Of a DNA stretch of 64,000 bases, positions 12,984-43,296 are shown one piece after another. Below the pieces are notes generated by a model that was not told where the DNA came from, ran no database searches, and saw nothing but the letters and a program-made list of their open reading frames with translations. Source of the DNA: Gammaproteobacteria bacterium (lineage in GTDB: Bacteria; Pseudomonadota; Gammaproteobacteria; UBA6429; Thiohalophilaceae); NCBI GenBank assembly GCA_015491815.1, contig WFVC01000038.1, positions 2,095 to 66,094 of the forward strand, read 5' to 3'. How positions within the stretch are numbered: position 1 is the first letter of the stretch; each line of letters starts with the position of its first letter. A program made the position numbers and the translations under genes.

Positions 12984-13415
12984 TCAGGCTCGATGCACCG
13001 TCACCTGTTGGCTCTCACTGTGCAAAATTTTACAGGCCTGTTCAACGATGTCACTGTCACCATGAACAATCAACAGGTTCTGTCCGAGCATGACCGCCTG
13101 TTCGTACTGCTTAATACAACTTCTGGGAATACCCATATTATAAAGCATCGCGCCGAAAGCGCTAAAACCACCATTGATAACCGCATTCGCAGTTCTTTTC
13201 AGGTTTGTTTGAACATCACATTCCCAGTAACAACGACTTTCGCCAACATTATAAAAACCGATTGGATACGCATCGCTTCGGTAAACTTTGCTGGCAATAA
13301 ACACCTGTTTAAGATCAAGCCCCGCTTTTTGCAAATCCTCAAGCGCCTGCTCAGTCGCCTGATGAGTCGGGTAAATAGAAATACAACTGTTTTTTTTACT
13401 CATCGCCTTATTCAT
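12984..13415 (-). CDS. Small stress-protein-like protein (YflT / general stress protein 17M-like ends)
   Basis: The N-terminus ISIYPTHQATEQALEDLQKAG and C-terminus GIPRSCIKQYEQAVMLGQNLLIVHGD resemble the two ends of the 24304-24891 protein and of B. subtilis YflT. This is an alignment by eye only. Confidence 0.45.
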   Translation of the reverse strand: MNKAMSKKNSCISIYPTHQATEQALEDLQKAGLDLKQVFIASKVYRSDAYPIGFYNVGESRCYWECDVQTNLKRTANAVINGGFSAFGAMLYNMGIPRSCIKQYEQAVMLGQNLLIVHGDSDIVEQACKILHSESQQVTVHRA

Positions 13416-13498
13416 TATAATTTTACAACTCTAAACCGGGCGATGCGCCGGTTTAAGTGCTGAATAAGCATATTTTGAAATACAGGCGCTAATATAGC

Positions 13499-13514
13499 TG
13501 TCACACAGGTGACA
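13499..13514 (+). promoter_or_regulatory. Operator-like site S0: TGTCACACAGGTGACA (fully palindromic half-sites TGTCA-N6-TGACA)
   Basis: It is part of the 7-4-7 inverted repeat CTGTCAC-ACAG-GTGACAG. It lies about 90 nt upstream of the 12984-13415 gene and just after the Crp/Fnr gene stop. Confidence 0.6.
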
Positions 13515-13572
13515 GACACAGAATATTAAAGATCAACAGCCACTGGCAGAAAACGGTAATAGCTTACGCCAA

Positions 13573-14331
13573 TCAGGAAACCTTCTTCTGTTGTTTCGTA
13601 TGAGCCAAGGCGTCCCCGGCATATTCCTGCAGAACTTCCAGATCTGCAACCTCGGTGTGAAACTTATGTTTGTGTAACACACCCTGTTTTCGCCAGTGCT
13701 GAAGATGTCGATTAACAACCTGACGCACTGAGCCCACCATCCGCGCCAAAGCATCATCATGCAGGTCATTAATTAATTTTAGAGGATGGTGATGGCGACT
13801 ATTGGCGGACTCCGGGTGATGCGGCGCAACATGGCGCAATATTAAACGAGCCAGTCGCGTCATGGTATCGTGCAGAGCAAGATCGGTCGCCAAATCTTCC
13901 ATTTGCCGCATCTGCTCTCCCAGATAAGGCAGAAAATTTCGATTAAATTCATGATGCCGGTCGATCCATGCACGGGCATCCGGTATGGGCACAGAAATCA
14001 GGGCGACATCGTCCAACGCTACTGGTGTAATTTCATGTGGTTGAGTATATAGCAGGGTCGCCATATCAATACCATCACCCGGCCCCAGTAAAAACAGGGT
14101 AATGCTTCGCCCTGTTTCCGGATTGATACGCATCACTTCGAGGCGACCTTCAATCAACAAATAAAAACGCTCCTGAAAAATGGCAGGATCCAGTTGTACG
14201 CCACGACGCCAGGTATCGCGCCGGAATAATGACAACATGTCATCGAGCAACTCGTCCTCCAGTCCTGCAAACAGCGGAGAGTGCGTCAATATATCTTTAC
14301 AATGGCGATAGTAAACAGGATCCCGTTTCAT
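13573..14331 (-). CDS. Crp/Fnr-family transcriptional regulator (cNMP-binding-like sensor plus C-terminal HTH)
   Basis: It has a beta-roll effector domain (FYLLIEGRLEVMRINPETGRSITLFLLGPGDGI) and a C-terminal HTH (DDALARMVGSVRQVVNRHLQHWRKQGVL). It has only one Cys, so it lacks an FNR-type Fe-S cluster motif. Confidence 0.8.
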   Translation of the reverse strand: MKRDPVYYRHCKDILTHSPLFAGLEDELLDDMLSLFRRDTWRRGVQLDPAIFQERFYLLIEGRLEVMRINPETGRSITLFLLGPGDGIDMATLLYTQPHEITPVALDDVALISVPIPDARAWIDRHHEFNRNFLPYLGEQMRQMEDLATDLALHDTMTRLARLILRHVAPHHPESANSRHHHPLKLINDLHDDALARMVGSVRQVVNRHLQHWRKQGVLHKHKFHTEVADLEVLQEYAGDALAHTKQQKKVS

Positions 14332-14516
14332 TTAACTGTCCCCCATGGAACATTTATAAAAGATCTGAAAGCTGGTCATCTAAACTCGATAACCGGATAA
14401 AGGCATTTCAGCAACACCGTGCAAAATTATGATTAATTCCACACGCTTCTTGCGTCTAACTATGCGACAACAGCATAACAGATAAATTCCGTTGACAGGA
14501 TAATGCAACGCTTGAG

Positions 14517-14532
14517 TGTCACCCAGGTTGCA
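14517..14532 (+). promoter_or_regulatory. Operator-like site S1: TGTCACCCAGGTTGCA
   Basis: It lies in the divergent intergenic region between the Crp/Fnr gene (start 14331) and glgP (ATG 14599). Confidence 0.6.
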
Positions 14533-14598
14533 TCGGACTAAAAACAGCTTATATACACTTCTTATACAGAATCTAACTTTAACTTAAGGGTGTATGCG

Positions 14599-17124
14599 AT
14601 GCCCGCCTTTTTACCACGTCCGTTACCGCAGGGACTCGAAGTGCTCACCGAGCTGGCGCTGGATTTGCGCTGGACCTGGAGTCATAGCGCTGATGCGCTC
14701 TGGCAGATGCTCGACAAAGAAGCCTGGGAGCGCAGTAAAAACCCCTGGATACTTTTGCAGGACGTATCTCAGCAGCGTCTGCAGCAGCTTGCCAATGATG
14801 CCGCATTCCGGCGGGAACTGAAACGTCTGTCTGCAGAACGGGACAATTATCTGGCTAATCCCGGCTGGTACAAAGAGGCGCAACCGCAGTTTGATATTGG
14901 CAAGGTCGCCTATTTCAGCATGGAATTCGGTCTTGGCGAAGCCCTGCCTGTCTATGCCGGTGGGCTGGGTATTCTTGCCGGCGATTTTCTTAAAACCGCC
15001 AGCGATCTGGGCATCCCGTTGGTGGGCGTCGGCCTGCTCTACCAGGAAGGCTATTTCCGGCAAATGCTCGATACCGATGGCCGTCAGCTGGCTGTGTATC
15101 CTTATAATGAACCCTCCACGTTACCTATTCAGCCCGTTCTCACTCAGACCGGAAAATGGTTGCATGTGCCCCTGAACCTGCCGGGACGGCAATTAAAGTT
15201 GCGCATCTGGCAGGTAATCGTGGGTCGGGTTCGCCTGTATTTACTGGACAGCAACGATCCACTCAACAGCCCCCGTGATCGCGGCATCACCAACAAACTT
15301 TACGACGCCAGCCACGAACTACGCTTTTTGCAGGAACTGGTGCTCGGCATCGGCGGCTGGCGCCTGTTGAAAGCCATTGGCGAAGAGATTTCAGTCTGTC
15401 ATCTCAATGAAGGACACGCCGCCTTTGTGGTGCTGGAACGCGCGCGCAGCTTTATGGATCAGGCAGGCTGTTCATTTCAGACAGCCCTGTGGGCCACCCG
15501 CGCCAGCAATGTTTTTACCACCCACACGCCGGTCGCGGCGGGTTTCGATACCTTCCCGCCGCAGTTCATCGATAAATATTTCCCGCTATTCCACAATTTC
15601 CTCAGCCATACCGGACTCTCGCTGCAGGCGTTGCTGGCGCTGGGCCGTAAAAATCCGGACGATCCGACGGAAGCATTTAATATGGCTTATCTGGCCATGC
15701 GCGGCTGTGCGCATACGAATGCGGTCAGTCGTCTGCACGGCGAGGTCAGTCGCCAGTTATTCTCTGATCTTTATCCACGCTGGCCACAGGCCGAAGTCCC
15801 GGTCAGCCATGTCACCAACGGCGTACACGTTCCGACATGGGATTCCCCCTGGGCTGATCAGATCTGGACTGAGGCCTGTGGCAAACAACGCTGGCTTGGC
15901 AGCACCGATGCTCTGCACCATTCTATCCAGACGCTGGACGATGAAACTCTGTGGAAGTTACGCGCCAGTGAACGCGAAGATCTGGTGCACTACGCACGCA
16001 AACGTCTGGCGCTGCAACTGGGTCAGGCCGGAGCCAGTCCGGAACAGGTCGAACAGGTGGCGCAGGTGCTGGATCCAAATGCATTAACTCTGGGCTTTGC
16101 CCGACGTTTTGCAAGCTATAAACGACCCAACCTGTTATTACACGATCGCCGGCGTCTGACAGCTTTATTGACGAACCCCGCACGACCGGTGCAGTTGATC
16201 ATTGCGGGTAAGGCGCACCCTGATGATCAAGAAGGCCAACGCATGATTCAGGAGTGGGTCAACTTTGTTCGCCAGCCGGCTATCCGCGGCCATGTTGTTT
16301 TTCTGGAGGATTATGACATTGCGCTGGCGCAACAACTGGTGCAGGGCATCGACGTCTGGATCAATACGCCCCGCCGCCCCTGGGAAGCCAGCGGCACCAG
16401 CGGCATGAAAATATTGGTCAATGGCGGACTCAATCTTTCGGAGCTGGATGGCTGGTGGGCCGAAGCCTGTTCGGAAGAAACCGGCTGGTCGCTGGGCGAC
16501 GGCAGGGAGCATGATGCGGATTTAAGCTGGGATGCCGTGGAAGCCGAACAACTTTATCAGCGTCTGGAAAATGAAATTATCCCCATGTTCTATACTCGGG
16601 ATACACAGGGTCTGCCGCGCGACTGGCTGATGCGTATCCGCAAGAGCATGGTGCAACTGGCGCCGCAATTCAGCAGCAACCGCATGGTGCAGGAATACAT
16701 CCGGCAGCTTTATCACCCCGCCAACACCGCCTATGAAAAACGCCGCGCGCAGCAGGGACAATTGGCCAAACAACTTCACGGCTGGCACAGCACGCTTAAT
16801 CTGCATTGGAAACAGATACACTTCGGCAACCAGACTGTCAACAATACGGATGACGGTTGGCAATTTCAGATACAGGTCTATCTCGGTGAAATTCTGCCTG
16901 AACAAATCCGGGTTCAACTTTACGCCGAGGGAATAGACGCTGACAGCCCTCAGGTGTATGACTGCGACTGCGGAGAAAAAATTACCGGCGCTATTCACGG
17001 TTACTGTTTTTACACAACGATTAGTACTAACCGGCCGGTAACAGATTTTACCGCGCGAGTCATTCCTTATCATGTTAACGCCTGCGTTCCAGCGGAAGTG
17101 CAACTGATTGTCTGGCAACACTGA
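14599..17124 (+). CDS. glgP: Alpha-glucan (glycogen/maltodextrin) phosphorylase, GT35 alpha-glucan family
   Basis: It contains LDLRWTWSH, NEGHAAF, HVTNGVH and the PLP-lysine region EASGTSGMK. The ORF track starts at a GTG (14590); the ATG at 14599 is preferred. Confidence 0.9.
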   Translation: MPAFLPRPLPQGLEVLTELALDLRWTWSHSADALWQMLDKEAWERSKNPWILLQDVSQQRLQQLANDAAFRRELKRLSAERDNYLANPGWYKEAQPQFDIGKVAYFSMEFGLGEALPVYAGGLGILAGDFLKTASDLGIPLVGVGLLYQEGYFRQMLDTDGRQLAVYPYNEPSTLPIQPVLTQTGKWLHVPLNLPGRQLKLRIWQVIVGRVRLYLLDSNDPLNSPRDRGITNKLYDASHELRFLQELVLGIGGWRLLKAIGEEISVCHLNEGHAAFVVLERARSFMDQAGCSFQTALWATRASNVFTTHTPVAAGFDTFPPQFIDKYFPLFHNFLSHTGLSLQALLALGRKNPDDPTEAFNMAYLAMRGCAHTNAVSRLHGEVSRQLFSDLYPRWPQAEVPVSHVTNGVHVPTWDSPWADQIWTEACGKQRWLGSTDALHHSIQTLDDETLWKLRASEREDLVHYARKRLALQLGQAGASPEQVEQVAQVLDPNALTLGFARRFASYKRPNLLLHDRRRLTALLTNPARPVQLIIAGKAHPDDQEGQRMIQEWVNFVRQPAIRGHVVFLEDYDIALAQQLVQGIDVWINTPRRPWEASGTSGMKILVNGGLNLSELDGWWAEACSEETGWSLGDGREHDADLSWDAVEAEQLYQRLENEIIPMFYTRDTQGLPRDWLMRIRKSMVQLAPQFSSNRMVQEYIRQLYHPANTAYEKRRAQQGQLAKQLHGWHSTLNLHWKQIHFGNQTVNNTDDGWQFQIQVYLGEILPEQIRVQLYAEGIDADSPQVYDCDCGEKITGAIHGYCFYTTISTNRPVTDFTARVIPYHVNACVPAEVQLIVWQH

Positions 17125-17601: not shown

Positions 17602-18216
17602 ATGTTTACACTGAACCAATTTGCCTCCTGGTTAACCGACTCTCACTGGCCCTGCATCGTCATCAGCATACTGGTGTTTCTGGAGTCCAGTCCGGTTGTT
17701 GGCCTGTTTATTCCCGGTGTTCTGCTGCTGCCAGCCATTGGCGCACTGTCCGGCAGCAACATGCTGGAGTTTGAAAAAATATTCCTGTGTTGTCTGGCGG
17801 GCGCACTGATGGCGGACAGTCTTGGTTATGCTCTGGGTCGTCTGGGCTATGGCGAATGGCATCACCGCTTCAGCTCCCGAGGGCACAATCGGATCAGGCA
17901 ACAGGCCGGCAATTTTTTACATCACTATGGCGGGGTTGCAATCTTCGTCGGACGCATCATGTGGCTGATTCATCCACTGGTGCCAACGCTGGTGGGCGCG
18001 CTTGGCGCACCGGCCTGGCGATTCTATTTACTGGACACGCTGGCGGTTATTCTCTGGCTGGCGCTGGAATTAGGATTGGGTCACGGCCTGCTGGTCTACA
18101 CGCGACAGTTCACCGGCTCTTTTAGCGACTGGTTAATCATGTCGCTGGGGCTGCTTGTCGTGTTCATCGGAATCTACAGCTGGCGTCGACAATCTTATTT
18201 TCGAGATAATAAATAA
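17602..18216 (+). CDS. DedA/SNARE-associated family membrane protein
   Basis: It has the DedA-type re-entrant region VFLESSPVVGLFIPGVLLLPAIGALSG and multiple TM helices. Its 3' end overlaps the convergent TauE gene by 22 nt. Confidence 0.7.
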   Translation: MFTLNQFASWLTDSHWPCIVISILVFLESSPVVGLFIPGVLLLPAIGALSGSNMLEFEKIFLCCLAGALMADSLGYALGRLGYGEWHHRFSSRGHNRIRQQAGNFLHHYGGVAIFVGRIMWLIHPLVPTLVGALGAPAWRFYLLDTLAVILWLALELGLGHGLLVYTRQFTGSFSDWLIMSLGLLVVFIGIYSWRRQSYFRDNK

Positions 18217-18953
18217 CGAAAACCAATAATCAGCAACAGCACGGCAAACAGGCTACGCAAATGCAATTCCGGCAAGGACAGCGCCAGACGACTGCCCAGC
18301 CAGGCGCCAAGCAGGCCGCCGCTGATCAATCCCGGCAACAACGCCAGACGCACATGTCCATGCCGAAAATTTTCCAGACTTCCCGCCACCACTGCAGGAA
18401 TTCGGGCCGCCAGTGAGCAGCCCTGCGCCATTTGCTGCGGCATGCCGAGCCCCAGAACCAACAGCGGCGCCAACACCGGGCCACCGCTGACCCCCACGCT
18501 ACCGGCGACCAGACCTTCAATAACGCCCACGCCAATCAGATAGCCGATGCGCATCGAGTCGGTTAATTTCCAGTCACCCAGAAATTGTTCCCGCAACAAG
18601 AGAAACAGCGCACCGGTGATAATCACGACACTGAAAATACGACGCAAACGAAGACTGGAAAAATGCTCACTCCAGAGGCCCACAAAGGGCGTCACAATCA
18701 ATGCAGGGACAGCCACCAGCACCACCGCCAGCCAGTCTACCTGCGCAGCCTGCGCGTATAGAAACGTCCCAAACAGCGCAGGAAAAAAGGCTGCCGCCAG
18801 AGCGGTGCCTCGCGCTTCAAATTCAGACAAATGCAACCAGGACAACATCAAAGGGATAGTCAGAGTACCGCCGCCCAGACTGAACAAGCCGCCGCCCAAA
18901 CCGGCCAGCAGACCAATAATCAGAATTTTAATTTGCATGGGCATAGTGTACAT
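18195..18953 (-). CDS. TauE/SafE (TSUP) family anion exporter
   Basis: It is a 252-aa polytopic membrane protein with two Gly-rich repeat halves (GLGGGLFSLGGGTLTIPLM / GSVGVSGGPVLAPLLV). Confidence 0.75.
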   Translation of the reverse strand: MYTMPMQIKILIIGLLAGLGGGLFSLGGGTLTIPLMLSWLHLSEFEARGTALAAAFFPALFGTFLYAQAAQVDWLAVVLVAVPALIVTPFVGLWSEHFSSLRLRRIFSVVIITGALFLLLREQFLGDWKLTDSMRIGYLIGVGVIEGLVAGSVGVSGGPVLAPLLVLGLGMPQQMAQGCSLAARIPAVVAGSLENFRHGHVRLALLPGLISGGLLGAWLGSRLALSLPELHLRSLFAVLLLIIGFRYLLSRK

Positions 18954-18993: not shown

Positions 18994-19009
18994 TGTCACT
19001 CAGGTTGCA
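18994..19009 (+). promoter_or_regulatory. Operator-like site S2: TGTCACTCAGGTTGCA
   Basis: It lies in the divergent intergenic region between the TauE gene (start 18953) and the zinc-ribbon gene (ATG 19099). Confidence 0.6.
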
Positions 19010-19098: not shown

Positions 19099-19611
19099 AT
19101 GAATAAACCGTCACAACATGATCCGATTGACATACTTGGCGAAGTCTACGAAAAAATGTTCGAGCGCGTAGTCGAAGATTTCCACAAAGCGGAAAAAAAG
19201 ACCGACACCCTGTTACACACGCTTATTGATGAGGCCAGAGACAAGTTTATTGAACTGGGAGAAGTATCAAAAGAAGATGCGGAAAAACTGGGCGACTATC
19301 TCAAACGCGATATGACTCACGCTCTTCACTATTTATCAGAAACCGGCCATGAGCTGAGTGACTGGCTGGGATTTGAAACCGCACTGTATGAAAATGCGAT
19401 ATTTGATCTGCTCTTAAGCGCCGCCGATAAAACCACATTTGAGTTGCTGACTATGAAAGAAGCATTGCAACAGGCGGCAGTCTATCGCACTGGGGAAATT
19501 ACCGGCCCCGGTACGCTGATCTGTGACCAATGCGGGGAAAAGCTGCATTTTCAGAAAGCCGGAAGGATTCCCCCCTGTCCGAAATGTCATGCAACCACGT
19601 TTCATCGTTAA
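19099..19611 (+). CDS. Zinc-ribbon-containing protein (DUF1451-like)
   Basis: It has a helical N-terminal part and the C-terminal CDQCGEKLHF...PPCPKCHATTF Cys4 ribbon. Confidence 0.6.
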   Translation: MNKPSQHDPIDILGEVYEKMFERVVEDFHKAEKKTDTLLHTLIDEARDKFIELGEVSKEDAEKLGDYLKRDMTHALHYLSETGHELSDWLGFETALYENAIFDLLLSAADKTTFELLTMKEALQQAAVYRTGEITGPGTLICDQCGEKLHFQKAGRIPPCPKCHATTFHR

Positions 19612-19740: not shown

Positions 19741-21135
19741 TTACAGTTCATATACCTGATGCAGTTCCGGCATTTCGACTCGGGTATTTTTTAATTTACT
19801 GGAAAAACTTCGCATACTCTCTTCTTCACCATGTACAAGAAAAGTTGTTTTTGGGTTCCCCGTCTGTTGATGCCAGGCCAGCAACTCCGCTTGATCAGCA
19901 TGAGCGGAAAATCCACCGATGGTGTAAATACCAGCGCGCACCGGAATCTCTTCACCAAAAATACGCACCTGTTCAGCTCCGTCAATAATGCGCCGCGCAA
20001 GGGTGCCCTGCGCCGCATAACCGACAAACACCACGCTGTTTTTATGATTCCACAGATTATGTTTCAGGTGATGTCGAACGCGCCCCCCTGTACACATACC
20101 GGAACCGGCCATGATCACCGCACCGCCATCGATCTGATTGATAGCCATAGACTCAGCGGTTTCACGGGTGAAATGCAGGCCGGGTAACTGAAAAGGATCA
20201 TGACCGTTATCTGATACTTTCAGTGTCTCCGCATCAAAACATTCGGGATGACGTTCGAAAATTTGAGTGGCAGAAATTGCCATAGGCGAATCGAGAAAGA
20301 CATTGGTGAAATGTTTGATCTGTCTGCTTTCTATCCCTTCGCGCAGGTAATAAAGAATTTCCTGTGCGCGCTCCAGCGCAAAAGTGGGAATGATGACATT
20401 GCCGCCTCGACCCAGGCTGTCGTTAATCACCACATACAGTTCTTCAATCGAGGGTTGCAGTTGCTTGTGCAGACGATCGCCATAAGTAGTTTCCATTACT
20501 ACCGTATCCACCTTTGGCGGCGTTGCCGGATTACGTAAAATCGCGCGTCCGCTATAACCAAGATCACCGGAGAACAATAACCGATGCGATCGCCCGTTTT
20601 CCTCCAGCTCCAGTAAAATACTGGCCGAACCAAGAATATGACCCGCATCAATAAAAGTGACGCGAATTCCCGGCGCCAGATCCACAGGCTGATCGTAACT
20701 AATGCGTCGACCAAAATATTCAAGACTGTTAAGCGCATCCAGTGTGGTATAAAGCGGCTCAATTTTTTTTGCATGATTGCCGCCATGACGACGCGCCTTG
20801 CGCATCTGGTAACGGGCCTCTTCTTCCTGCAGCCCGGCCGCGTCCAGCATCACCAGTCGCGCCAGTTCAACTGAAGCCGCTGTAGTGATCACCTCACCTG
20901 TAAAACCACGTTTAGCCAACAGGGGGATGCGCCCGCAATGATCAAGATGGGCATGCGTTAATAACAGATAATCAATCTCCGCCGGTTCAAATCCGAAAGC
21001 TGCAGAATTCTCCTCGGCAATTTCATGCCCGCCCTGATACAGGCCACAATCAATCAAAATCCGTTTGCCCGCGCATTCAAGCAAATGACAGGAGCCTGTG
21101 ACACTCTGATCAGCGCCGTGAAATGATATTTTCAT
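19741..21135 (-). CDS. MBL-fold metallo-hydrolase of the beta-CASP family (RNase J/CPSF-like putative ribonuclease)
   Basis: It has the HAHLDHCGRIP motif, a beta-CASP-sized insertion and a C-terminal H (…FSAHADQAELL…). Its ATG overlaps the upstream LOG gene stop (ATGA). Confidence 0.75.
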   Translation of the reverse strand: MKISFHGADQSVTGSCHLLECAGKRILIDCGLYQGGHEIAEENSAAFGFEPAEIDYLLLTHAHLDHCGRIPLLAKRGFTGEVITTAASVELARLVMLDAAGLQEEEARYQMRKARRHGGNHAKKIEPLYTTLDALNSLEYFGRRISYDQPVDLAPGIRVTFIDAGHILGSASILLELEENGRSHRLLFSGDLGYSGRAILRNPATPPKVDTVVMETTYGDRLHKQLQPSIEELYVVINDSLGRGGNVIIPTFALERAQEILYYLREGIESRQIKHFTNVFLDSPMAISATQIFERHPECFDAETLKVSDNGHDPFQLPGLHFTRETAESMAINQIDGGAVIMAGSGMCTGGRVRHHLKHNLWNHKNSVVFVGYAAQGTLARRIIDGAEQVRIFGEEIPVRAGIYTIGGFSAHADQAELLAWHQQTGNPKTTFLVHGEEESMRSFSSKLKNTRVEMPELHQVYEL

Positions 21136-22115
21136 TGTATTTCCTCAATCAGTGTTTCACCATTTCGCTCATACCAGCACAGCAGGCCTTCCCAGATATC
21201 TTCCGCCGTTTCGGCAAACCAGAATAATTCCCGATCCTCGATATCAATCACTCCCTCTTCAACCAGAAAATCAATATCAAAGGCTTTACGCCAATAGGCC
21301 TCACCTACCAACACCACCGGCACCGGTTTAATTTTGCGTGTCTGTATCAAAGTTAATGTTTCAAATAGTTCATCAAAGGTGCCAAAACCGCCGGGAAAGG
21401 CGACCAGCGCCTTTGCACGCAACATGAAGTGCATTTTGCGCAAGGCAAAATAATGAAACTGGAAGCATAATTCGGGAGTAATATAGGGGTTGGGATATTG
21501 TTCATGCGGCAGGGTAATATTAAGACCAATGGTTTTGGCTCCGGCTTCACATGCGCCGCGGTTAGCGGCTTCCATCATTCCCGGCCCACCACCGGTCATC
21601 ACCACCAGTTGCGAGTCCTCCGGCCCACCACCGGCATTAGCAACTCGATGTGAAAATTCACGCGCGACATCATAGTAATGACTTTTCGCAAGAATGCGTT
21701 CAGCGACAAACAGGCGGCGTTGTAATTCATTATCTTCCGGAGATGCCGCCAATGCCTCGCGCAGCTGTTCAACTTTCTGTTCGGCCGCCACCGGTTCAAC
21801 GATGCGTGTGCTGCCGAACACAACAATCGTATTCATAATTCCATGTGCATGCAGCAGGCTGTCCGGTTTCAGATAATCCAGTTGCAAACGCACACCGCGT
21901 GCAGTATCACTATCAAGGAAATCTACATCTTCAACAGCCGGAATATAGGATGAACTATTCAGAATGCGATCCAGCTTACCCGGTCCTTCCGGATCTTCAC
22001 TTGAGGATTTAGGTTTATGCCAGGGTAACGGCTCCCGGCGTCGCTGCGGATGCGCCGGTTGCGGCACTTCTGGTCGACTATGTTTTTTAATCACGGGTGA
22101 CCTTTTGTTATTCAA
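21132..22115 (-). CDS. LOG / TIGR00730-family nucleotide 5'-monophosphate nucleosidase (PpnN-like). The start codon is uncertain (TTG 22115 or GTG about 22094).
   Basis: It has the GGGPGMMEAANRGA and PGGFGTFDELFE signature motifs. Confidence 0.75.
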   Translation of the reverse strand: MNNKRSPVIKKHSRPEVPQPAHPQRRREPLPWHKPKSSSEDPEGPGKLDRILNSSSYIPAVEDVDFLDSDTARGVRLQLDYLKPDSLLHAHGIMNTIVVFGSTRIVEPVAAEQKVEQLREALAASPEDNELQRRLFVAERILAKSHYYDVAREFSHRVANAGGGPEDSQLVVMTGGGPGMMEAANRGACEAGAKTIGLNITLPHEQYPNPYITPELCFQFHYFALRKMHFMLRAKALVAFPGGFGTFDELFETLTLIQTRKIKPVPVVLVGEAYWRKAFDIDFLVEEGVIDIEDRELFWFAETAEDIWEGLLCWYERNGETLIEEIQ

Positions 22116-22156: not shown

Positions 22157-22172
22157 TGCTACCTGGGTGACA
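22157..22172 (-). promoter_or_regulatory. Operator-like site S3: TGTCACCCAGGTAGCA (read on the minus strand)
   Basis: It lies in the divergent intergenic region between the LOG/beta-CASP operon (start 22115) and glgX (ATG 22236). Confidence 0.55.
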
Positions 22173-22235: not shown

Positions 22236-24287
22236 ATGTTTATGAACAACTGGGAAGCACGGGAAGGCGCGCCCTGGCCGTTAGGGGTTAACTTCATTGC
22301 CTCACAACAGGCATGGAATTTCGCTCTCTACAGTAAACATGCAACAGAGGTGACGCTGCATCTGTATCAGGAAAACGATATCCAGCATCCGGTTGACAGC
22401 TATGTCTTTAATCCTTTACTGAACAAATCCGGTCGAGTCTGGCACTGCCGCCTGCCGCTTGCAAGAGTGGACGGCGCACATTACTACGCCTATCAGGTTG
22501 ACGGCCCCTTTGATCCCGTCAATGGTCATCGTTTTGATTCACAAAAACAATTGCTGGATCCCTATAGCCGAGCCGTGTTTTTCCCACCGGGGTTTGATCG
22601 TCGGGCCGCCATTGAATCCGGTTCAAATATCGGCAAGGCGCCATTGAGCGTGCTTCCTGCACATATCCATGATCGCATCCAAAACCCGCTTCCAAAACCT
22701 CAACATACTCATGATCTGATCATTTATGAACTGCATGTAAAAGGGTTTACCCAACATGCCGGTTCCGCCGTTGCTGCAGACAGGCGCGGTACGTTTTCGG
22801 GGGTGATCGAAAAGATTCCCTATTTACAGTCTCTCGGCATTACCGCAGTTGAACTAATGCCGGTTTTCCAGTTTGACCCACAGGGAAATGACTACTGGGG
22901 CTACATGCCACTGAGTTTCTTCGCACCACACCACCACTATGGCAAGACTGATTCACCCGTCGCCCTGCTCGATGAGCTCCGGGAAATAGTTCATGCCTTT
23001 CATCATGCCAATATCGAAGTCATTCTGGATGTGGTTTATAACCATACCGGCGAAGGCAATGAGCAGGGACCGACCTACAGTTTTCGCGGGCTTGATAACA
23101 CCACCTATTACCTGCTCGAAAATGATCGACGTTATTATCGCAATGACGCCGGCACCGGCAATGTGCTGCATACCGCCAATCGCTATGTGCGCAGCATGGT
23201 GCTCGACAGTCTGCGTTACTGGGTCAAAGACATGCGAGTGGATGGTTTCCGTTTTGATCTGGCGTCGATCTTTACCCGCCGTAGCGACGGCTTAGTTAAT
23301 CTTGAAGATGCGCCGATCATCTCGGCAATTCGTTCCGATCCTGATCTTGCCGGGGTGCGTTTGATCGCGGAGGCCTGGGATATCTCCAGTTATCAACTCG
23401 GACGCAGTTTTCCCGGTATCAGCTGGCAACAGTGGAACGGGCGCTTTCGCGATGACATTCGCCGTTTCGTGCGCGGTGATAATGGTCTAATCAATTCACT
23501 CATACAGCGGCTTTACGGCAGCGATGATCTTTTTCCGGATTCGCGCATGGACGCCTACCACCCTTACCAGAGCATCAACTTTATCACCGCCCATGACGGT
23601 TTCACACTTTATGATCTGGTCGCCTATAACAACAAACATAATGAAATTAACGGTCATGGCAACACCGATGGCAGTGATCATAATTTTTCATGGAATGGTG
23701 GCTGGGAGGGCGACACCGCCGTTCCCGATGCCGTGATGCATTTACGCAAACGTCAGATCAAAAATTTCTGCGCACTGCTGTTGCTCGCCAACGGCACGCC
23801 GATGTTGCGCGCCGGTGATGAATTCATGCAGACCCAGTTCGGCAACAACAACCCCTACAATCAGGATAACGAAATCAGCTGGCTAAACTGGGATCGGCTT
23901 GAGAGCAACCCGGATATGTTTCGTTTCTTTCAGAAGATGATCGCCTTTCGCAAGGCCCATCCCTCATTGGGGCGCAGTCGTTTCTGGCGTGAAGATGTGC
24001 GTTGGTATGGCGTCGGCCCGGATGTCGATCGTTCATGGTATTCCCATAGTCTTGCCTATCATCTCAGCGGCGCTTCACAAAATGATCGAGATATCTATGT
24101 CATGATTAACGCATGGAGGGAAGATCTTACTTTCACTATTCAGGAAGGTCATGCGAATGACTGGCATCGCGTCATCGATACGGCTGAAACCTCTCCTCAG
24201 GACATTGTTGCCGACGCTCAGGCGCGCCCGTTACAAACTCTGAGCTATCGAGTCAGCGCGCGTTCGATTGTGGTATTAATATCCTGA
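22236..24287 (+). CDS. glgX: Glycogen debranching enzyme (isoamylase-type, GH13)
   Basis: It contains REGAPWPLGVNF...NFALYS (the CBM48 start), GFRFDLA, EAWD and the FITAHDGFTL catalytic regions. Confidence 0.9.
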   Translation: MFMNNWEAREGAPWPLGVNFIASQQAWNFALYSKHATEVTLHLYQENDIQHPVDSYVFNPLLNKSGRVWHCRLPLARVDGAHYYAYQVDGPFDPVNGHRFDSQKQLLDPYSRAVFFPPGFDRRAAIESGSNIGKAPLSVLPAHIHDRIQNPLPKPQHTHDLIIYELHVKGFTQHAGSAVAADRRGTFSGVIEKIPYLQSLGITAVELMPVFQFDPQGNDYWGYMPLSFFAPHHHYGKTDSPVALLDELREIVHAFHHANIEVILDVVYNHTGEGNEQGPTYSFRGLDNTTYYLLENDRRYYRNDAGTGNVLHTANRYVRSMVLDSLRYWVKDMRVDGFRFDLASIFTRRSDGLVNLEDAPIISAIRSDPDLAGVRLIAEAWDISSYQLGRSFPGISWQQWNGRFRDDIRRFVRGDNGLINSLIQRLYGSDDLFPDSRMDAYHPYQSINFITAHDGFTLYDLVAYNNKHNEINGHGNTDGSDHNFSWNGGWEGDTAVPDAVMHLRKRQIKNFCALLLLANGTPMLRAGDEFMQTQFGNNNPYNQDNEISWLNWDRLESNPDMFRFFQKMIAFRKAHPSLGRSRFWREDVRWYGVGPDVDRSWYSHSLAYHLSGASQNDRDIYVMINAWREDLTFTIQEGHANDWHRVIDTAETSPQDIVADAQARPLQTLSYRVSARSIVVLIS

Positions 24288-24303: not shown

Positions 24304-24891
24304 TCAGTGTTCAACCGGCAGGGTAATCACCGAATCGGCGCCCGTCGATCCAAGGCGCATGGTGCAGTGATCCGCCTGTTCCGGATCACAATGTAGAATC
24401 ACAACATAATGATCAGTTTCGATTGCCCGATGAATCTGTTTAATCGCCGATGCGGGTACGCCAATTTGATGCAGGGCGCCGGCCAGTTGCGTCAATGCCG
24501 CCGCCCCCGCCATCGCGCCACCACTTACCACCCCGCCGGCGATGGCGCCACCCAGCGCTTCCACCATCGGACCGGCAGCCAGCAACGGTCCAATGCCCGG
24601 CAACACAAAAAGTCCGGTTGCCCCGGCCAGCATCCCCCAGAGCACCCCCCAGACAACGCCGTGTTTACCCCAGGCTTTGACCCGTTCAGAGGTGTTGGTA
24701 TAGGCCAGCCCCAGCATGTCATCGCCTGTGCCACCAGCTTTACGCAACAGCGAAAGTCGATCAGCGGGAAATTCATCCTCAATCAATTTTTCAATGGTTT
24801 GCAGCGCCTTTTCTTCACTGCTATAAATACCAATCGCCAGCACCAGGCGGGCATGTTCATATTTGTTTTCTGTCTTCTCCAGATCCGCCAT
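24304..24891 (-). CDS. General stress protein 17M (YflT)-like protein with a Gly-rich membrane segment
   Basis: It contains GIYSSEEKALQTIEKL, then LPGIGPLLAAGPMVEALGGAIAGG, then GVPASAIKQIHRAIETDHYVVILH. This parallels YflT (GVY..EEA..AIE; IPGIGP..AAGP; GIPEE.A..Y...V..G..L). Confidence 0.6.
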   Translation of the reverse strand: MADLEKTENKYEHARLVLAIGIYSSEEKALQTIEKLIEDEFPADRLSLLRKAGGTGDDMLGLAYTNTSERVKAWGKHGVVWGVLWGMLAGATGLFVLPGIGPLLAAGPMVEALGGAIAGGVVSGGAMAGAAALTQLAGALHQIGVPASAIKQIHRAIETDHYVVILHCDPEQADHCTMRLGSTGADSVITLPVEH

Positions 24892-24997
24892 GAGATGCCG
24901 CCTTTTCTTTGCTGAACGATTTGTTTCACCCGTGATATTCTCCGGGGAAAACGGTCATTGTCTGCATCGCACTTTATAGAACTCTTTATGCTTTGGC

Positions 24998-25013
24998 TGT
25001 AACCTGGGTGACA
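24998..25013 (-). promoter_or_regulatory. Operator-like site S4: TGTCACCCAGGTTACA (read on the minus strand)
   Basis: It lies in the divergent intergenic region between the YflT-like gene (start 24891) and ackA (ATG 25047). The site ends 34 nt before the ackA ATG. Confidence 0.55.
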
Positions 25014-25046
25014 GATGAGGCGATTGAATACGCGCACAATTCGTTC

Positions 25047-26258
25047 ATGTCTCAGCTCCCTATCAGATCGCTATTAAGCATCAACAGCGGTTCCTCCAGC
25101 CTGAAGTTTGCACTGTTTGGAATGGCTAATAAGGATGCGCTGCGTGAATATTACCGAGGACAAATTTCCAGCATTGGCGCGGATGCGCTGTTTCAGGTTA
25201 AGGATGAAAAGGGAGAAGAAACGCACCGGAAAAACCTGCGCCTCTCCGATCACCGGCAAGCATTGAAATTACTGCTGGACTGGTTAGCAAAGCAAATCGA
25301 CTTATCGCAACTGCTCGGGGTAGGACATCGTATCGTACACGGTGGCGCGCGTTTTACTATGCCCGTGCGCATAACGGCGGATGTATTTGCATATTTACAA
25401 TCACTGACGCCCCTTGCCCCCAATCATCAACCGGCCAATCTGCTCGGCATAAGCACCCTTCAGGATCTGCAACCGGCGATCCCCCAGGTCGCCTGTTTCG
25501 ACACCGCTTTTCATCAACAACGGCCGGACGTGGAACAAGGTTTCGCCCTGCCCGCGCATCCCAAATTGAAAGCTGTTCGTCGCTATGGTTTTCACGGCCT
25601 GTCCTACCAGTATATCGCCGGCGTATTGTCCGACTATCCCGATATAGAGGCCGATGGCAAAATCATCGTCGCGCATCTGGGGCATGGCGCCAGTTTATGC
25701 GCCATGCATAAACGCCGCAGCATCGCCACCACCATGACCTTTACGCCGCTGGATGGCGTGCCAATGGGCGCGCGCTGTGGTTCGATTGATCCGGCGGTGG
25801 TGCTGTATTTACTGCAACAGGGCATGAGTGAAAAAGAAATTTCCGATCTGCTGTATTTTCAGTCCGGCCTGCTCGGGGTCTCCGGCCTCAGTGATGACAT
25901 GGCTGAGTTACTTGAATCATCTTCACAACAGGCGCAGTTCGCCATTGAGCTGTTCGTTCACCACGTTGTCCGCGCCATCGGTTCACTGGCCGCCGCACTG
26001 GGCGGCGTCGACGCCATCATTTTTACCGCCGGCATCGGTGAACATGCGGTGTCCATACGCGAAACGATCTGTCAGCGTTGTGCATGGCTGGGTGTACAAC
26101 TGGATGAAAACGCCAACCGCGCCAGCCGGCCCTGTATTACCGAAAAAAACAGTCCGGTGCAGGTCTGGATCATCCCCACCGATGAACAACGCATGATTGC
26201 CGAACAGACGCTTGCGCTTATAAACACGGACAACAACTTACACAGGATGTCATCATGA
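25047..26258 (+). CDS. ackA: Acetate kinase
   Basis: It contains [33 protein letters not shown] and FTAGIGEH. The track ORF starts at 24993, but the conserved N-terminus begins at the ATG at 25047. Confidence 0.9.
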
Positions 26259-28636
26259 TTGAATCAAATTTTACCGTCACGGATTCACCGTTATCCGATA
26301 CTGAACTGGCTCTGATCGACGCATGGTGGCGGGCGGCGAATTATGTCTCCATCGGCCAGATCTACCTGCTCGATAATCCCCTGCTCAAACAACCGCTAAG
26401 TCTTGAACACATCAAACCACGACTGCTGGGGCACTGGGGCACCACACCCGGTTTGAACATGATCTATGCGCATCTTAATCGAGTGATCAGCGCGCGCGAT
26501 CTGAATATTATTTATGTGACCGGCCCCGGTCACGGCGCACCGGGGCTGGTCGCCAATACCTGGCTGGAAGGCAGCTACAGCGAACTGTATCCCAACATCA
26601 GCCGCGACGAAGCGGGAATGAAACAGCTATTCAGGCAGTTTTCTTTCCCCGGCGGCATTCCCAGCCACACGGCGCCGGAAACCCCTGGCTCGATTCATGA
26701 AGGCGGTGAACTCGGTTACTCGTTGAGCCACGCTTATGGCGCGGCTTTCGATAACCCGGATCTGATCGTCGCCTGCGTGGTCGGCGATGGCGAAGCGGAA
26801 ACCGGCCCCGCCGCCACCGCCTGGCACTCCAACAAGTTTCTTGATCCTGTGCGCGATGGCGCGGTGCTGCCCATTCTGCATCTAAACGGTTACAAGATTG
26901 CCAATCCCACCGTGCTGGCGCGCATCAGCAACACGGAATTGATCGATCTGTTTCACGGCTACGGTTATACGCCTTACCTGGTTGAAGGTTCTGATCCGCA
27001 GGCTGTGCATCAGGCCATGGCCGCCACTCTGGATCGGATCATGGATGAGATTCACGACATTCAATACAACGCACGCAAGGGTGCAGAAAACACGCGCCCG
27101 CGCTGGCCAATGATCATCCTGCGCACACCCAAGGGCTGGACCTGTCCGAAGGAAATCGACGGTCTGAAACTCGAAGATTACTGGCGCGCCCATCAGGTGC
27201 CCTTTGCGCAACTGGCGGAAAAACCGCAACACATCCGCGTGCTCGAACAATGGATGAAAAGTTATCGACCCGAAAGCCTGTTTGATGACCAGGGAAAGTT
27301 AATCGCCGATGTCGCCGCGCTGGCCCCATCCGGCGAGCGGCGCATGGGCAGCAATCCCCACGCCAATGGCGGCCTGCTGTTGCATGATCTAAAACTGCCC
27401 GACTATCGCGATTACGCGCTGGACATCCCCACACCCGGCGGCACAACGGGTGAAGCCACGCGACGCATGGGCGACTATCTGCGCGATGTCATGGCCTTGA
27501 ATGCCGAGCAAAAAAACTTCCGGGTGATGGGCCCGGATGAAACCGTCTCCAACCGCCTTGGCGCATTGCTGGAGGTCACCAATCGCGTCTGGGAGGCCGA
27601 GACCTATGCTTATGATGACCACCTCGCCCCTGATGGCCGGGTCATGGAAATTCTTTCCGAGCACACCTGTCAGGGCTGGCTCGAAGGTTATTTACTGACC
27701 GGTCGGCACGGCCTGTTTTCCTGTTATGAAGCCTTCATCCACATCGTCGATTCCATGTTTAATCAACACGCCAAGTGGCTCAAGGTCAGCAAACAGATCC
27801 CCTGGCGGCGACCCATCGCCTCGCTCAATATTCTGCTCACCTCGCACGTCTGGCGACAGGATCACAACGGTTTTTCCCATCAGGATCCCGGTTTCATCGA
27901 CCACGTGGTAAACAAGAAAGCCGACATCGTACGCGTCTATTTACCACCGGACGCCAACACCACGTTGTGCATCACCGCCCGTTGCCTGAACAGTCGCAAC
28001 CGGGTCAATGTCATCGTCGCCGGTAAACAACCTGAACCTCAGTGGCTGGATATGGAGGCGGCGATCAAGCACTGTCACGCCGGTATCGGCATCTGGGAAT
28101 GGGCCGGCAATGACAGCGACAGCGAGCCGGATGTGATCATGGCCTGCGCTGGGGATGTGCCGACGATTGAAACCCTCGCCGCAGTAAAAATATTACGTGA
28201 ACATCTGCCCGAATTGAAAGTCCGGGTCATCAACGTCGTCGATCTAATGACCCTGCAACCTAAAGAAGAACATCCGAATGGTCTTAACGATGATGACTTC
28301 GACGCCCTGTTCAGCATCGACAAACCGATCGTCTTTGCTTTTCATGGCTATCCCTGGCTGATTCATCGACTGGTCTATCGCCGCCACAACCATGAAGGTC
28401 TGCATGTGCGCGGATATAAAGAGGAAGGCACCACCACCACGCCCTTCGATATGACCGTACTCAATGAACTGGATCGTTTTCATCTGGTCAGTGATGTTAT
28501 CGACCGGGTCAGCGGTATGGGTTCAAAAGGCAGCTATCTAAAACAGCTTATGCGCGACAAGCTGATTGAACACAAGCAATACATCACCGAACACGGTGAA
28601 GACATGCCGGAAATTCGTGACTGGCAATGGCAGTAA
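26255..28636 (+). CDS. xfp: Phosphoketolase (xylulose-5-P/fructose-6-P phosphoketolase)
   Basis: 793 aa containing [38 protein letters not shown] and [10 protein letters not shown]. Its start overlaps the ackA stop (ATGA). Confidence 0.95.
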
Positions 28637-28645
28637 AAAATAGAG

Positions 28646-28707
28646 TTAAGGAACCTCTGATTAATTCCGTTCGCCCTGAGCTTGTCGAAGGGTGAACCAT
28701 ATAACAT
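28646..28707. mobile_element. MITE copy B, a solo half-element (one arm only)
   Basis: TTAAGGAACCTCTGATTAATTCCGTTCGCCCTGAGCTTGTCGAAGGGTGAACCATATAACAT matches one arm of the full copies. Similarity stops after ATAACAT. Confidence 0.7.
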
Positions 28708-28752
28708 AGTGAGTAAAGCGTAGGGGTATCGATGACGCCAAAACGAAGAGTC

Positions 28753-28773
28753 CCCTCTCCCTCAGGGAGAGGG
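28753..28773. repeat. 9-bp-stem hairpin CCCTCTCCC-TCA-GGGAGAGGG
   Basis: It is a perfect inverted repeat between xfp and the lpd-like gene. No U-run follows on either strand. Confidence 0.6.
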
Positions 28774-28831
28774 AGTCAGGCCGTGCTACCGAAAATTTTT
28801 CTGAAGAACCAGATAAGGGAGAAAAACAAAA

Positions 28832-30253
28832 ATGAACACTGATTACGATGTGCTGATCATCGGCGGTGGCCCCGGCGGCACCCCCGCGGCAATGGCGCTG
28901 GCGATGGCGGGTAAACAGGTGCTGCTGGTGGAAAGCGGTGCGGGTCTCGGCGGCACCTGTTTATTCGAAGGTTGCATCCCCTCCAAAATTTTTCGCGAGT
29001 CGGCGCGCCGTCTGCGTGAGTTGCGTGAAGCCGCCGACTTCGGGCTTTGTTTGCCGACGCTGGATACCCGGATTAACTGGTCAGCCATTCAGGAACGCAA
29101 ACGAAATATTTTACAACGCCGCAGTCAGGCTGCACTGGCGCGAGTGGAAAAAATTCCCGGCCTGACATTTGTTCAGGGACGCGCACAGTTTATCTCGGCG
29201 CACGAAGCCGAGATCTCGATCACGGACGCTGAGGTTCAGCGCGTGCAGTTCAAACAGGCCATCATCGCCACCGGCTCGATACCGTTTCGGCCCCCCATCC
29301 GCGGCATCGATCATCCCCGGGTACTGGACAGCGAGGCGATACTTAATATCGATCACATCCCGGACAAGCTGGTGATCATCGGCGCCGGTCCCATCGGCGT
29401 GGAACTGGGACAGGTCTTTCACACCTTTGGCAGTCGGGTCAGTATTCTGGAAGCCGCGCCGAACATTCTTGGCCCGGTCGATCAGGAACTGGCCGCGCAA
29501 CTGCGGCAACGCATGCAGGACGATGGCATCGAAATTCACACTGACTGCAGGGTCAACGCAATCATTCATTCCGGACAACGCGTGTATGTGGAATACCTGA
29601 ACGCCGATCAGGAAAAACAGCACTGCTTCACCGACACCGTGCTGGTCGTCGCCGGTCGCCGTCCCAATGTTCAGAGCCTCGGACTGGAAAACACAGCCGT
29701 CGAACATGATGCGCATGGCGTCAAGGTTAACGCGACACTGGAAACCGGCGAGGCCGGAATTTATGCCGTTGGCGATGTCATCGGCCAGCCCATGTTCGCC
29801 CACTGGGCCACCACGCAGGGACTGGCGCTGGCCCGGCATCTTCTCGGCCAGCCCGCGCCCTTCCCCGATCCCCTTAGCAATTCCGCCGTTATTTTCAGTG
29901 AACCGGAACTGGCGATGGCGGGACTGACTGAAGCGGCGGCGCGTGAAGCCGGGATCGAAGTTGAAATCGCCCGCTATGATTTTCAGCACGACGCGCGCAG
30001 CCAGATCAGCGGCCGGGATGCGGGCATGCTGAAAATCGTATTCGAGAAAAACAGCCACAAGGTGCTGGGCGTCCATGCGCTAACGGAAGGCGCAGATGCG
30101 CTCATGGGCGAGGCCGCTCTGCTGGTCAAGGCCGGTTTGCCGCTTGAAGCCATAGCCGGTGCGATTCATCCCCATCCGACCCTGAGCGAATCCTTTGTGC
30201 AGGCGGCGCGCTCGGCGCTGGCCGCCCTGAGCATGGGCAAGCCAAAACCATGA
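28832..30253 (+). CDS. Dihydrolipoyl dehydrogenase-family flavoprotein disulfide oxidoreductase
   Basis: It has the GGGPGG FAD motif, the redox-active CLFEGCIPSK motif and the C-terminal HPHPTLSE interface motif. Confidence 0.8.
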   Translation: MNTDYDVLIIGGGPGGTPAAMALAMAGKQVLLVESGAGLGGTCLFEGCIPSKIFRESARRLRELREAADFGLCLPTLDTRINWSAIQERKRNILQRRSQAALARVEKIPGLTFVQGRAQFISAHEAEISITDAEVQRVQFKQAIIATGSIPFRPPIRGIDHPRVLDSEAILNIDHIPDKLVIIGAGPIGVELGQVFHTFGSRVSILEAAPNILGPVDQELAAQLRQRMQDDGIEIHTDCRVNAIIHSGQRVYVEYLNADQEKQHCFTDTVLVVAGRRPNVQSLGLENTAVEHDAHGVKVNATLETGEAGIYAVGDVIGQPMFAHWATTQGLALARHLLGQPAPFPDPLSNSAVIFSEPELAMAGLTEAAAREAGIEVEIARYDFQHDARSQISGRDAGMLKIVFEKNSHKVLGVHALTEGADALMGEAALLVKAGLPLEAIAGAIHPHPTLSESFVQAARSALAALSMGKPKP

Positions 30254-36720: not shown

Positions 36721-36723
36721 ACA

Positions 36724-37407: not shown

Positions 37408-37461
37408 GAAATATTTAATTTCTATTTTGGAGGTAATTCCCCACAACCTGCCACATCATCG

Positions 37462-37542
37462 GTACGGCTTCTACCCTTCGGGTGAAATACCCGGCAGGGT
37501 GCACAGGTGAGCCGTACATGTTCGATTGAAATCGAACCTACA
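37462..37542 (+). repeat. REP-like hairpin doublet (locus R2), with the first unit expanded
   Basis: GTACGGCT...AGCCGTAC encloses extra small hairpins. It is followed by GTTCGATTGAAATCGAACCTACA. Confidence 0.65.
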
Positions 37543-37585
37543 GAAGTCGCTTATTAAGCCTAACACTCTGAACAGGAGATAAAAC

Positions 37586-38637: not shown

Positions 38638-38653
38638 TGTCATCCAGGTTGCA
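38638..38653 (+). promoter_or_regulatory. Operator-like site S5: TGTCATCCAGGTTGCA
   Basis: It lies 36 nt after the fba stop and upstream of the APC permease/H+-ATPase genes. A REP doublet and MITE copy C lie between the site and the permease ATG. Confidence 0.55.
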
Positions 38654-38930: not shown

Positions 38931-38950
38931 TCTTTACTGACGAGATAAAC

Positions 38951-40363: not shown

Positions 40364-40396
40364 TTCCGATCTCGTATCCACAGAGGAGCATTTGTC

Positions 40397-43295: not shown

Positions 43296-43296
43296 G

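Follow-up and report, generated by a model that had tools for sequence, protein, structure and literature searches.

Among described members of the Crp/Fnr superfamily, CooA is the CO-sensing activator of Rhodospirillum rubrum and Desulfovibrio, the haem ligands in R. rubrum being His77/Cys75 with Pro2. DNA-binding specificity in the Crp family is determined by residues 180, 181 and 185; Gln181 of the CooA type pairs with C at site position 7 (consensus TGTCGGCnnGCCGACA), and CRP carrying Val181 was selected on A/T at the same position (PMC545781, PMC2677863). In Mycobacterium tuberculosis, Cmr (Rv1675c) recognizes in vitro the site TGTCA-N6-(C/T)GACA (PMC4705688). The locus described here resides in a 64,000-nucleotide stretch (the window) of contig WFVC01000038.1 (C38; assembly GCA_015491815.1) of a gammaproteobacterium of the Thiohalophilaceae. 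The window contains eight copies of a 16-bp motif and a gene encoding a 252-amino-acid (aa) Crp/Fnr-family regulator, flanked, as the initial annotation had reported, by two of these copies, named S0 and S1 (Table 1). The regulator is quite probably the cognate factor of the motif, and would control glgP, the gene for alpha-glucan phosphorylase.

The window was searched for TGTCA-N6-TGACA, up to two mismatches being allowed. The copies found share far more than the two pentamers. The description of the motif as a 5-6-5 palindrome, given initially, is accurate for S0, which is perfect in this respect, but most copies are asymmetric; what recurs is a 16-mer, TGTCAyC(CA/TG)GGT(T/G)(G/A)CA, the core of which is conserved, the full consensus being the 7-2-7 palindrome TGTCACC-(CA/TG)-GGTGACA. 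Typical copies in the window read TGTCAyCCAGGTTGCA, or are near variants of this sequence. The asymmetric copies keep TGTCAC as their upstream half, and have a degraded half on the promoter side, which reads TTGCA, TTACA or TAGCA. The same half-site asymmetry is kept in Thiogranum longum (locus L099). The core of every copy (e.g. 14523-14527) is CCAGG/CCTGG, i.e. CCWGG, the target of Dcm/EcoRII-type methyltransferases, and methylation of this core could in principle affect binding.

The motif is confined to one region of the host genome (2.62 Mb in 206 contigs, 93% complete). A ninth copy, TGTCACTCAGGTAGCA, is located on the same contig (C38:74806), about 9 kb past the end of the window. When up to two mismatches to TGTCACCCAGGTTGCA were allowed, seven matches were found genome-wide, all seven on C38. 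The 12 best scores obtained in the genome with a weight matrix, built from sites of other genomes only, correspond to the nine sites, all on C38, the next match being clearly weaker. Clustering of the motif on one contig is far beyond chance. The regulator (at least 78% identity) was found in 5 of 61 related genomes, which are congeneric. Each of these five has the exact motif, of which the other 56 yielded a single stray match. The target gene xfp is harbored by 24 of the 61 genomes, including complete genomes at about 80% identity; the motif thus tracks the regulator, not the target gene.

The association was further monitored in 80 orthologous or homologous loci, fetched from species-representative genomes. 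In closer orthologues (52-87% identity, several genera) the motif is nearly always located just past the regulator stop codon, at the place of S0, and the copy found there is a palindrome in most loci. Copies are also found upstream of the regulator in many loci, and in most closer orthologues no more than about 150 bp separate motif and regulator gene.

The regulator scores above cut-off with both Pfam cNMP_binding (PF00027; 31.1 bits, cut-off 27.5) and HTH_Crp_2 (PF13545; 36.7 bits, cut-off 27), and is a member of the Crp/Fnr superfamily, featuring a beta-roll, a long dimerisation helix and a Crp-type helix-turn-helix (HTH). The AlphaFold2 model, obtained from a 56-sequence alignment, has the standard fold (mean pLDDT 84.5, pTM 0.78), with the beta-roll, a helix at residues 127-153 and the HTH at residues 192-215. 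Top Foldseek matches of the model are GlxR and M. tuberculosis CRP (TM 0.75-0.84), CooA and NtcA ranking lower, and sequence searches order the relatives in the same way. Sequence does not place the regulator specifically in the CooA branch; among proteins of solved structure, M. tuberculosis CRP and GlxR are the closest to it. Only generic family members were retrieved by the structure search, which gave no pointer to a ligand. The NCBIfam scan yielded just far sub-threshold matches to NtcA, FtrB and CRP, and no subfamily name; all database names are likewise generic. Identity with NtcA was discarded, the score against TIGR03697 being 28.1 bits (cut-off 245) and the motif differing from GTA-N8-TAC. 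The regulator is most likely a homodimeric Crp/Fnr-type factor of an unnamed, uncharacterised subfamily within a well-understood class. The protein is His-rich, with 19 His residues (7.5%), as compared to 2-4% in paralogs of the same genome. A disordered His-rich loop, HVAPHHPESANSRHHHPL, joins the dimerisation helix to the HTH (residues 167-185; disorder in the model 170-183). The sequence of the loop varies among homologues, and the His content ranges from 4.3 to 7.5% in the closest clade, and is mostly 2-5% in distant homologues.

The recognition helix, GSVRQVVNRHL, spans residues 200-210, and includes the stretch SVRQVVNRH noted earlier. By alignment to M. tuberculosis CRP (ASRETVNK), residues R203, Q204 and R208 correspond to CRP R180, E181 and R185. 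The combination of a CooA-like Gln204 and a CRP-like Arg208 predicts TGTCA, which is the half-site observed. The regulator had been regarded as the only DNA-binding protein of the right family. This is true of the window but not of the genome, which encodes six other Crp/Fnr paralogs, on contigs C32, C109, C131, C168, C169 and C193. All six feature Glu at the position of CRP Glu181, and helices of RE..GR, RE..SR or E..SR type, and the regulator alone, of R203-Q204-x3-R208 type, features Gln. The paralog on C32 combines eight Cys residues with ETVSR, a helix of FNR type; two others are CRP-like and keep an intact FGE...RSA cassette, and the remaining three have RE..SR or E..SR helices.

Helix residues of relatives were extracted by tblastn and compared with the associated sites. 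In 38 loci encoding Gln-type proteins, TGTCAY was found 24 times and TGTAAY twice, both exceptions being a TGTCAC...TTACA site read in reverse. In 24 loci encoding Val-type proteins, TGTAAY was found 16 times, TGTCAY once. In a tree computed without the helix columns, Gln-type proteins form one clade. A single evolutionary switch is therefore counted, and covariation by many independent events was set aside. Val-type relatives at ten loci (L040-L046, L048, L055, L056) are encoded in tandem, as two paralogous regulators which share the helix SVRVVVNRQ, and the motif TGTAACCCTGGTAGCA is found just 3' of the second gene; it is conceivable that the tandem products form heterodimers. Homologues at 38-50% identity (L049, L052, L060, L061, L070-L076 and others), from Nitrospirota, Thermodesulfovibrionales, Sulfurovum/Campylobacterota, Deltaproteobacteria and a Flavobacteriaceae bin, have Thr, Ala, Lys, Glu or Asn at the 181 position.

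The grounds for regarding the regulator as the probable cognate factor are its phyletic co-occurrence with the motif, the position of the motif next to the regulator gene, the Gln residue unique among the paralogs together with the match of Gln to TGTCA and of Val to TGTAA, and the conservation of the regulon in T. longum. On these grounds, the initial choice of the regulator as best candidate stands. Binding of a dimer to an inverted repeat would be consistent with S0, with the near-palindromic copy at 61103, with the palindromes of relatives and with the match between residues and bases.

The arrangement of promoter elements was analyzed by aligning 16 non-redundant asymmetric sites from the host genome and relatives. 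T, A and T are found at +22, +23 and +27 after the 16-mer in 11, 14 and 14 of the 16 sites, respectively. This TAnnnT sequence at +22 to +27 makes a -10 hexamer at a fixed gap of 21 bp, and the center of the 16-mer is consequently at -41.5. None of the aligned sites has a -35-like hexamer at a distance of 16-18 bp from the conserved -10 on its upstream side, CA plus four nucleotides (e.g. TCGG or GCAA) occupying that place; promoters of this type should be weak in the absence of an activator. TTGCA was tried as -35 hexamer, and discarded, as it lies 21 bp, not 16-18 bp, from the -10, and the sequence at the proper -35 place is unlike TTGACA. Spacing likewise rules out a -35 function as the reason for the asymmetry of the promoter-side half-site. 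A predicted -10 hexamer faces a gene at all eight sites of the window. Sites with a predicted -10, without a -35 and centered at -41.5 would represent the class II arrangement of activator-dependent promoters. Control of glgP, proposed in the initial annotation, would fit this scheme, S1 being centered at -41.5 from a predicted -10 (TACACT) which faces that gene.

Four intergenic sites located between divergent genes (18994, 22157, 24998 and 61103) have -10-like hexamers at 21-22 bp on both sides, and one bound dimer could serve two divergent promoters at each of them. At two genes, ack (ATG at 25047) and that of the TauE-family protein (ATG at 18953), just 6-13 nt separate the end of the predicted -10 from the start codon, and the corresponding mRNAs are therefore predicted to be leaderless, or nearly so.

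Altogether, the nine sites, eight in the window and one beyond it, are predicted to serve about 12 transcription units. According to the mechanism proposed, a regulator dimer would recognize the palindromic consensus and its asymmetric variants via R203, Q204 and R208, and would sit at -41.5 of sigma-70-type promoters having a -10 and no -35. Because of this combination of features, class II activation, in which the regulator recruits RNA polymerase, is the most likely mode of action. The predicted regulon would include glycogen phosphorylase and debranching enzyme; acetate kinase, phosphoketolase and phosphotransacetylase; PEP synthase, enolase, phosphoglycerate mutase and aldolase; the E1 pair of a 2-oxoacid dehydrogenase; the P-type proton ATPase with the permease; small stress-like proteins and a USP fusion; a two-component system. 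The neighborhood reads as glycogen breakdown to acetate plus ATP-driven proton export plus stress proteins, and the programme may be one of life on stored glycogen, via substrate-level phosphorylation, once respiration fails.

Table 1. Motif copies, predicted -10 hexamers and genes in the window (positions are those of the window)
Feature	Position	Strand	Sequence, family matches and remarks
143-aa small protein	12984-13415	minus	no Pfam/NCBIfam match; YflT-like is the label of an earlier reader; conserved beside the regulator across genera
Predicted -10 of S0	13472-13477	minus	CAAAAT; 21 bp from S0, faces the 143-aa gene
S0	13499-13514	strand-neutral	TGTCACACAGGTGACA; perfect 5-6-5 palindrome; scores highest genome-wide with the weight matrix; would be the class II site of the promoter of the 143-aa gene
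Crp/Fnr-family regulator gene (P0001)	13573-14331	minus	252 aa; cNMP_binding, HTH_Crp_2
Codons of recognition-helix residues S201-H209	13705-13731	minus	SVRQVVNRH (translation)
S1	14517-14532	plus	TGTCACCCAGGTTGCA; would be the class II site for glgP transcription
Predicted -10 of S1	14554-14559	plus	TACACT; 21 bp after S1, faces glgP
glgP, alpha-glucan phosphorylase	14590-17124	plus	Phosphorylase, DUF3417; TIGR02094, 826 bits; probable start ATG 14600
DedA-type protein	17602-18216	plus	VTT_dom
TauE-family protein	18195-18953	minus	TauE
Motif copy	18994-19009	plus	TGTCACTCAGGTTGCA; predicted -10: plus TAAACT (DUF1451 gene), minus TAGAAT (TauE-family gene)
DUF1451 protein	19099-19611	plus	DUF1451
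beta-CASP nuclease, LOG-like protein	19741-22115	minus	Beta-Casp, Lysine_decarbox
Motif copy	22157-22172	minus	TGTCACCCAGGTAGCA; predicted -10: minus TAAAAT (LOG-like/beta-CASP pair), plus GATAAT, 22-bp gap (glgX)
glgX (debranching enzyme)	22236-24287	plus	Alpha-amylase, CBM_48
195-aa protein	24304-24891	minus	no family match
ack, xfp, lpd-like, pta	24993-31209	plus	Acetate_kinase, XFP, Pyr_redox_2, PTA_PTB
Motif copy	24998-25013	minus	TGTCACCCAGGTTACA; predicted -10: minus TAAAGT (195-aa gene), plus CACAAT (ack-xfp and genes after)
PstS-like protein	31966-32898	plus	PBP_like_2
ppsA, eno, gpmA, class I fba	32972-38602	plus	PPDK_N, Enolase, His_Phos_1, Glycolytic
Motif copy	38638-38653	plus	TGTCATCCAGGTTGCA; predicted -10: plus CACGAT (amino-acid permease, P-type H+-ATPase)
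Amino-acid permease, P-type H+-ATPase	38876-42862	plus	AA_permease_2; TIGR01647, 978 bits
Motif copy	42872-42887	plus	TGTCATCCAGGTTGCA; predicted -10: plus CACAAT (CMD, E1-alpha, E1-beta)
CMD protein, E1-alpha, E1-beta	42948-45352	plus	CMD, E1_dh, Transketolase
Near-palindromic motif copy	61103-61118	strand-neutral	TGTCACCTGCATGACA; identical site in same-genus G003; predicted -10: plus TAAACT (OmpR-type response regulator + kinase), minus TATATT (HlyD-type efflux gene)

Much of this gene set is preceded by the motif in other species. T. longum, a cultured organism with a complete 2.9-Mb contig, encodes an orthologue of the regulator (P0085) which is 71% identical. Sites with a correctly spaced -10 are found in this genome before xfp-gpmA-pta-fba, CMD-E1ab, two P-type H+-ATPase genes and the DUF1451 gene. 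Another such site, with its -10, precedes the divergent operon adjoining the regulator (ppsA, glgP, permease), and a further one, with CAAAAT as -10, a 134-aa open reading frame upstream of ack. Six of about ten T. longum sites reside no more than 23 kb from the regulator. The motif was also found, in other relatives, upstream of homologues of H+-ATPase, ppsA, ack, eno, DedA, DUF1451 and small stress-like proteins. Sites are followed by H+-ATPase homologues in L014, L032 and, at two places, T. longum, by ack and xfp in L018 and T. longum, and by the DUF1451 homologue in T. longum and L080; homologues of the 143-aa protein are found downstream of motif copies in L018, L023, L042, L043 and L056. 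The ninth copy of the host genome precedes a gene (C38:73927-74821) for a 271-aa protein, the N-terminus of which is SpoIIAA/STAS-like and the C-terminal half USP-like, as judged by eye and by analogy. In T. longum, a copy of the motif is found about 65 nt before the start of a gene with Pfam matches to SpoIIAA-like and Usp; scoring of one strand showed no -10 at a gap of 21 bp.

Some observations weigh against the regulator as an activator bound to the motif. The placement at -41.5 depends on predicted -10 hexamers, and a site spanning -49 to -34 could in principle serve repression as well. The promoter-side half of the motif is systematically non-palindromic (TTGCA/TTACA/TAGCA vs. TGACA), for which a symmetric dimer offers no explanation. 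The Gln/Val covariation reflects a single switch, and as such agrees with the recognition rule, but is not independent statistical proof. Finally, regulator, motif and targets co-travel as one gene neighborhood; as this is inherited together, co-occurrence alone would fit as well another factor carried there.

The position of S0 and S1 on either side of the regulator gene had led to the suggestion that the regulator controls its own synthesis through both sites. Autoregulation is common in the family, as exemplified by Cmr (PMC4705688), S1 lies in the intergenic region shared by the regulator and glgP, and in one relative (L027), a clear exception, a site with a -10 faces the regulator. Yet S1 is 186-201 nt from the regulator ATG, and no -10 is found at a gap of 20-22 bp on the regulator side. 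S0 lies past the regulator stop codon, about 85-95 nt upstream of the 143-aa gene, and, having a -10 at the right distance, is the predicted promoter site of that minus-strand gene rather than a downstream flank of the regulator. No site is found within 400 bp upstream of the regulator in 12 of 27 orthologous loci, the window included, and in the loci that do have an upstream site the -10 is directed, with one or two exceptions, at the divergent gene. In the same-genus genome G003 a response-regulator gene, not glgP, is located upstream, and the pattern search found no site in between. Autoregulation is therefore unlikely, and is not a conserved feature; bracketing of the regulator would be a by-product of two neighboring promoters.

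The regulator might also bind the motif as a repressor, or dual regulator, occluding promoters until released by a signal. A protein bound at -49 to -34 could block the polymerase, and Crp/Fnr proteins are generally known to repress at some promoters (see PMC545781). This mode of action is decidedly improbable, as no site has a -35-like hexamer 16-18 bp upstream of the -10, and a spacing of 21 bp is too exact for simple occlusion, -41.5 being the classical class II position.

There is little likelihood that the motif is bound by another protein, either a Crp/Fnr paralog or an unrecognised factor of the neighborhood, the regulator merely co-traveling. Six paralogs are available in the genome, and shared inheritance of the neighborhood confounds the co-occurrence of regulator and motif. 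However, Glu at the 181 position of the paralogs predicts sites of TGTGA or TTGAT type, the base at motif position 4 changes with regulator residue 204 among relatives, and regulator gene and motif are adjacent in several genera. As for other DNA-binding proteins encoded by the contig, the OmpR-type response regulator is itself preceded by a site, and its family is generally known to bind direct repeats; the ArsR-type protein sits inside a metal-resistance unit. The idea that the motif is a promoter element of sigma-54, or another alternative sigma factor, has next to no chance of being correct: the asymmetric form TGTCAC-N5-TTGCA matches TGGCAC-N5-TTGCA in spacing and in 15 of 16 letters, and rpoN is present in the genome, but every copy has GT in place of the near-invariant GG, S0, 61103 and many sites of relatives are palindromes ending in TGACA and lacking TTGC, the conserved TAnnnT 21 bp downstream is of no use to sigma-54 promoters, none of the ten matches to Sigma54_activat (PF00158) in the genome is on C38, no enhancer-binding protein being nearby, and canonical TGGCAY-N5-TTGCW sites are found elsewhere in the genome.

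The sensor domain of the regulator departs from those of known members. Opposite the cAMP-contacting segments FGELS and PRTSS of M. tuberculosis CRP, the regulator has IDMAT and PHEIT, respectively, when the two proteins are aligned. As CRP Glu72 and Arg82 correspond to Met89 and His99, cAMP is probably not the effector. Identity with CRP proper was also discarded, because neither Glu72 nor Arg82-Ser83 of the phosphate-binding cassette is kept and the score against NF008732 (20.9 bits, cut-off 266) is far below threshold. In 56 homologues, His99 is conserved in at least 90% of sequences, and Gly62-Arg63 is invariant. The single cysteine, already noted in the initial annotation, is C11. The regulator consequently lacks a [4Fe-4S] ligand set, an Fe-S cluster is probably not its effector, and an O2 sensor of FNR type, with four Cys, was discarded, in agreement with the initial view; a separate paralog, the one on C32, has the Cys-rich make-up. 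A broader proposal, tentative and at present rather doubtful, is that the regulator belongs to a widespread unnamed subfamily, sensing a signal new to the family (e.g. a metal, haem, pH or energy state), and is the master switch of a conserved survival programme. The subfamily would range over Gammaproteobacteria, Nitrospirota, Campylobacterota and other vent and sediment lineages, and be marked by a pocket in which a near-invariant His replaces the Arg binding cyclic nucleotides, and which also has the invariant Gly-Arg. In chemolithoautotrophs deprived of respiration, the programme would comprise glycogen phosphorolysis, ATP synthesis by phosphoketolase and acetate kinase, proton extrusion driven by ATP, and stress proteins of USP/YflT type.

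Sulfur-oxidising chemolithoautotrophs of vents and sediments regularly lose oxygen, nitrate or sulfide, and how they survive such gaps is poorly known. Nothing on the motif or the regulon was found in the literature searched, the searches having covered the motif itself and Thiogranum or Sedimenticola in combination with phosphoketolase and glycogen. The set of predicted targets ties a eukaryote-like P-type proton pump to glycogen and to acetate fermentation based on phosphoketolase. One regulator, one 16-bp site, a putative recognition code (Gln204 to C at site position 4) and about a dozen promoters of class II type make up a testable unit and, since the same regulon is found in T. longum, which is cultured and has a complete genome, predictions can be tested at the bench, beyond metagenome bins. 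The system extends a very well-known family of regulators, would work by a textbook mechanism, and involves no new principle.

Similarities to CooA include Arg-Gln at the CRP 180/181 positions, a 16-bp palindromic site starting with TGTC (consensus TGTCGGCnnGCCGACA; PMC545781), and the role of CooA as activator of a small, local regulon of energy metabolism. In contrast, CooA has Thr/Ser where the regulator has Arg208, and the CooA half-site is TGTCG, not TGTCA. Sequence similarity is weak (E value 6e-6 to Carboxydothermus hydrogenoformans CooA-1, 0.03 to R. rubrum CooA), and the predicted targets are not coo genes. The resemblance of the half-site to that of CooA, noted initially, is real, but extends to Cmr (PMC545781, PMC4705688), the in vitro site of which is in essence the palindromic form of the motif. 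The match of sites is closer to Cmr than to CooA, although the regulator belongs to neither by sequence. The Cmr regulon overlaps a dormancy/hypoxia regulon (PMC4705688), and in this theme is comparable to the starvation-type gene set found here; Cmr differs in having Pro at the 181 position instead of Gln, hundreds of sites genome-wide, and autoregulation. FNR is a member of the same superfamily, and has a plausible link with loss of respiration, but the regulator has one Cys only, and its helix is RQVVNR rather than E--SR. CRP, GlxR and M. tuberculosis CRP provide the closest solved structures. With CRP the regulator shares neither the cAMP contacts nor the half-site (TGTCA vs. TGTGA), and its nine sites in one neighborhood differ from a global regulon, two separate CRP-like paralogs being encoded by the same genome. 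Sites centered at -41.5 with no -35 are nonetheless the class II arrangement of promoters activated by CRP and FNR, and single CRP sites are known to serve two divergent promoters, e.g. malX-malI in Escherichia coli, as proposed here for the four divergent sites.

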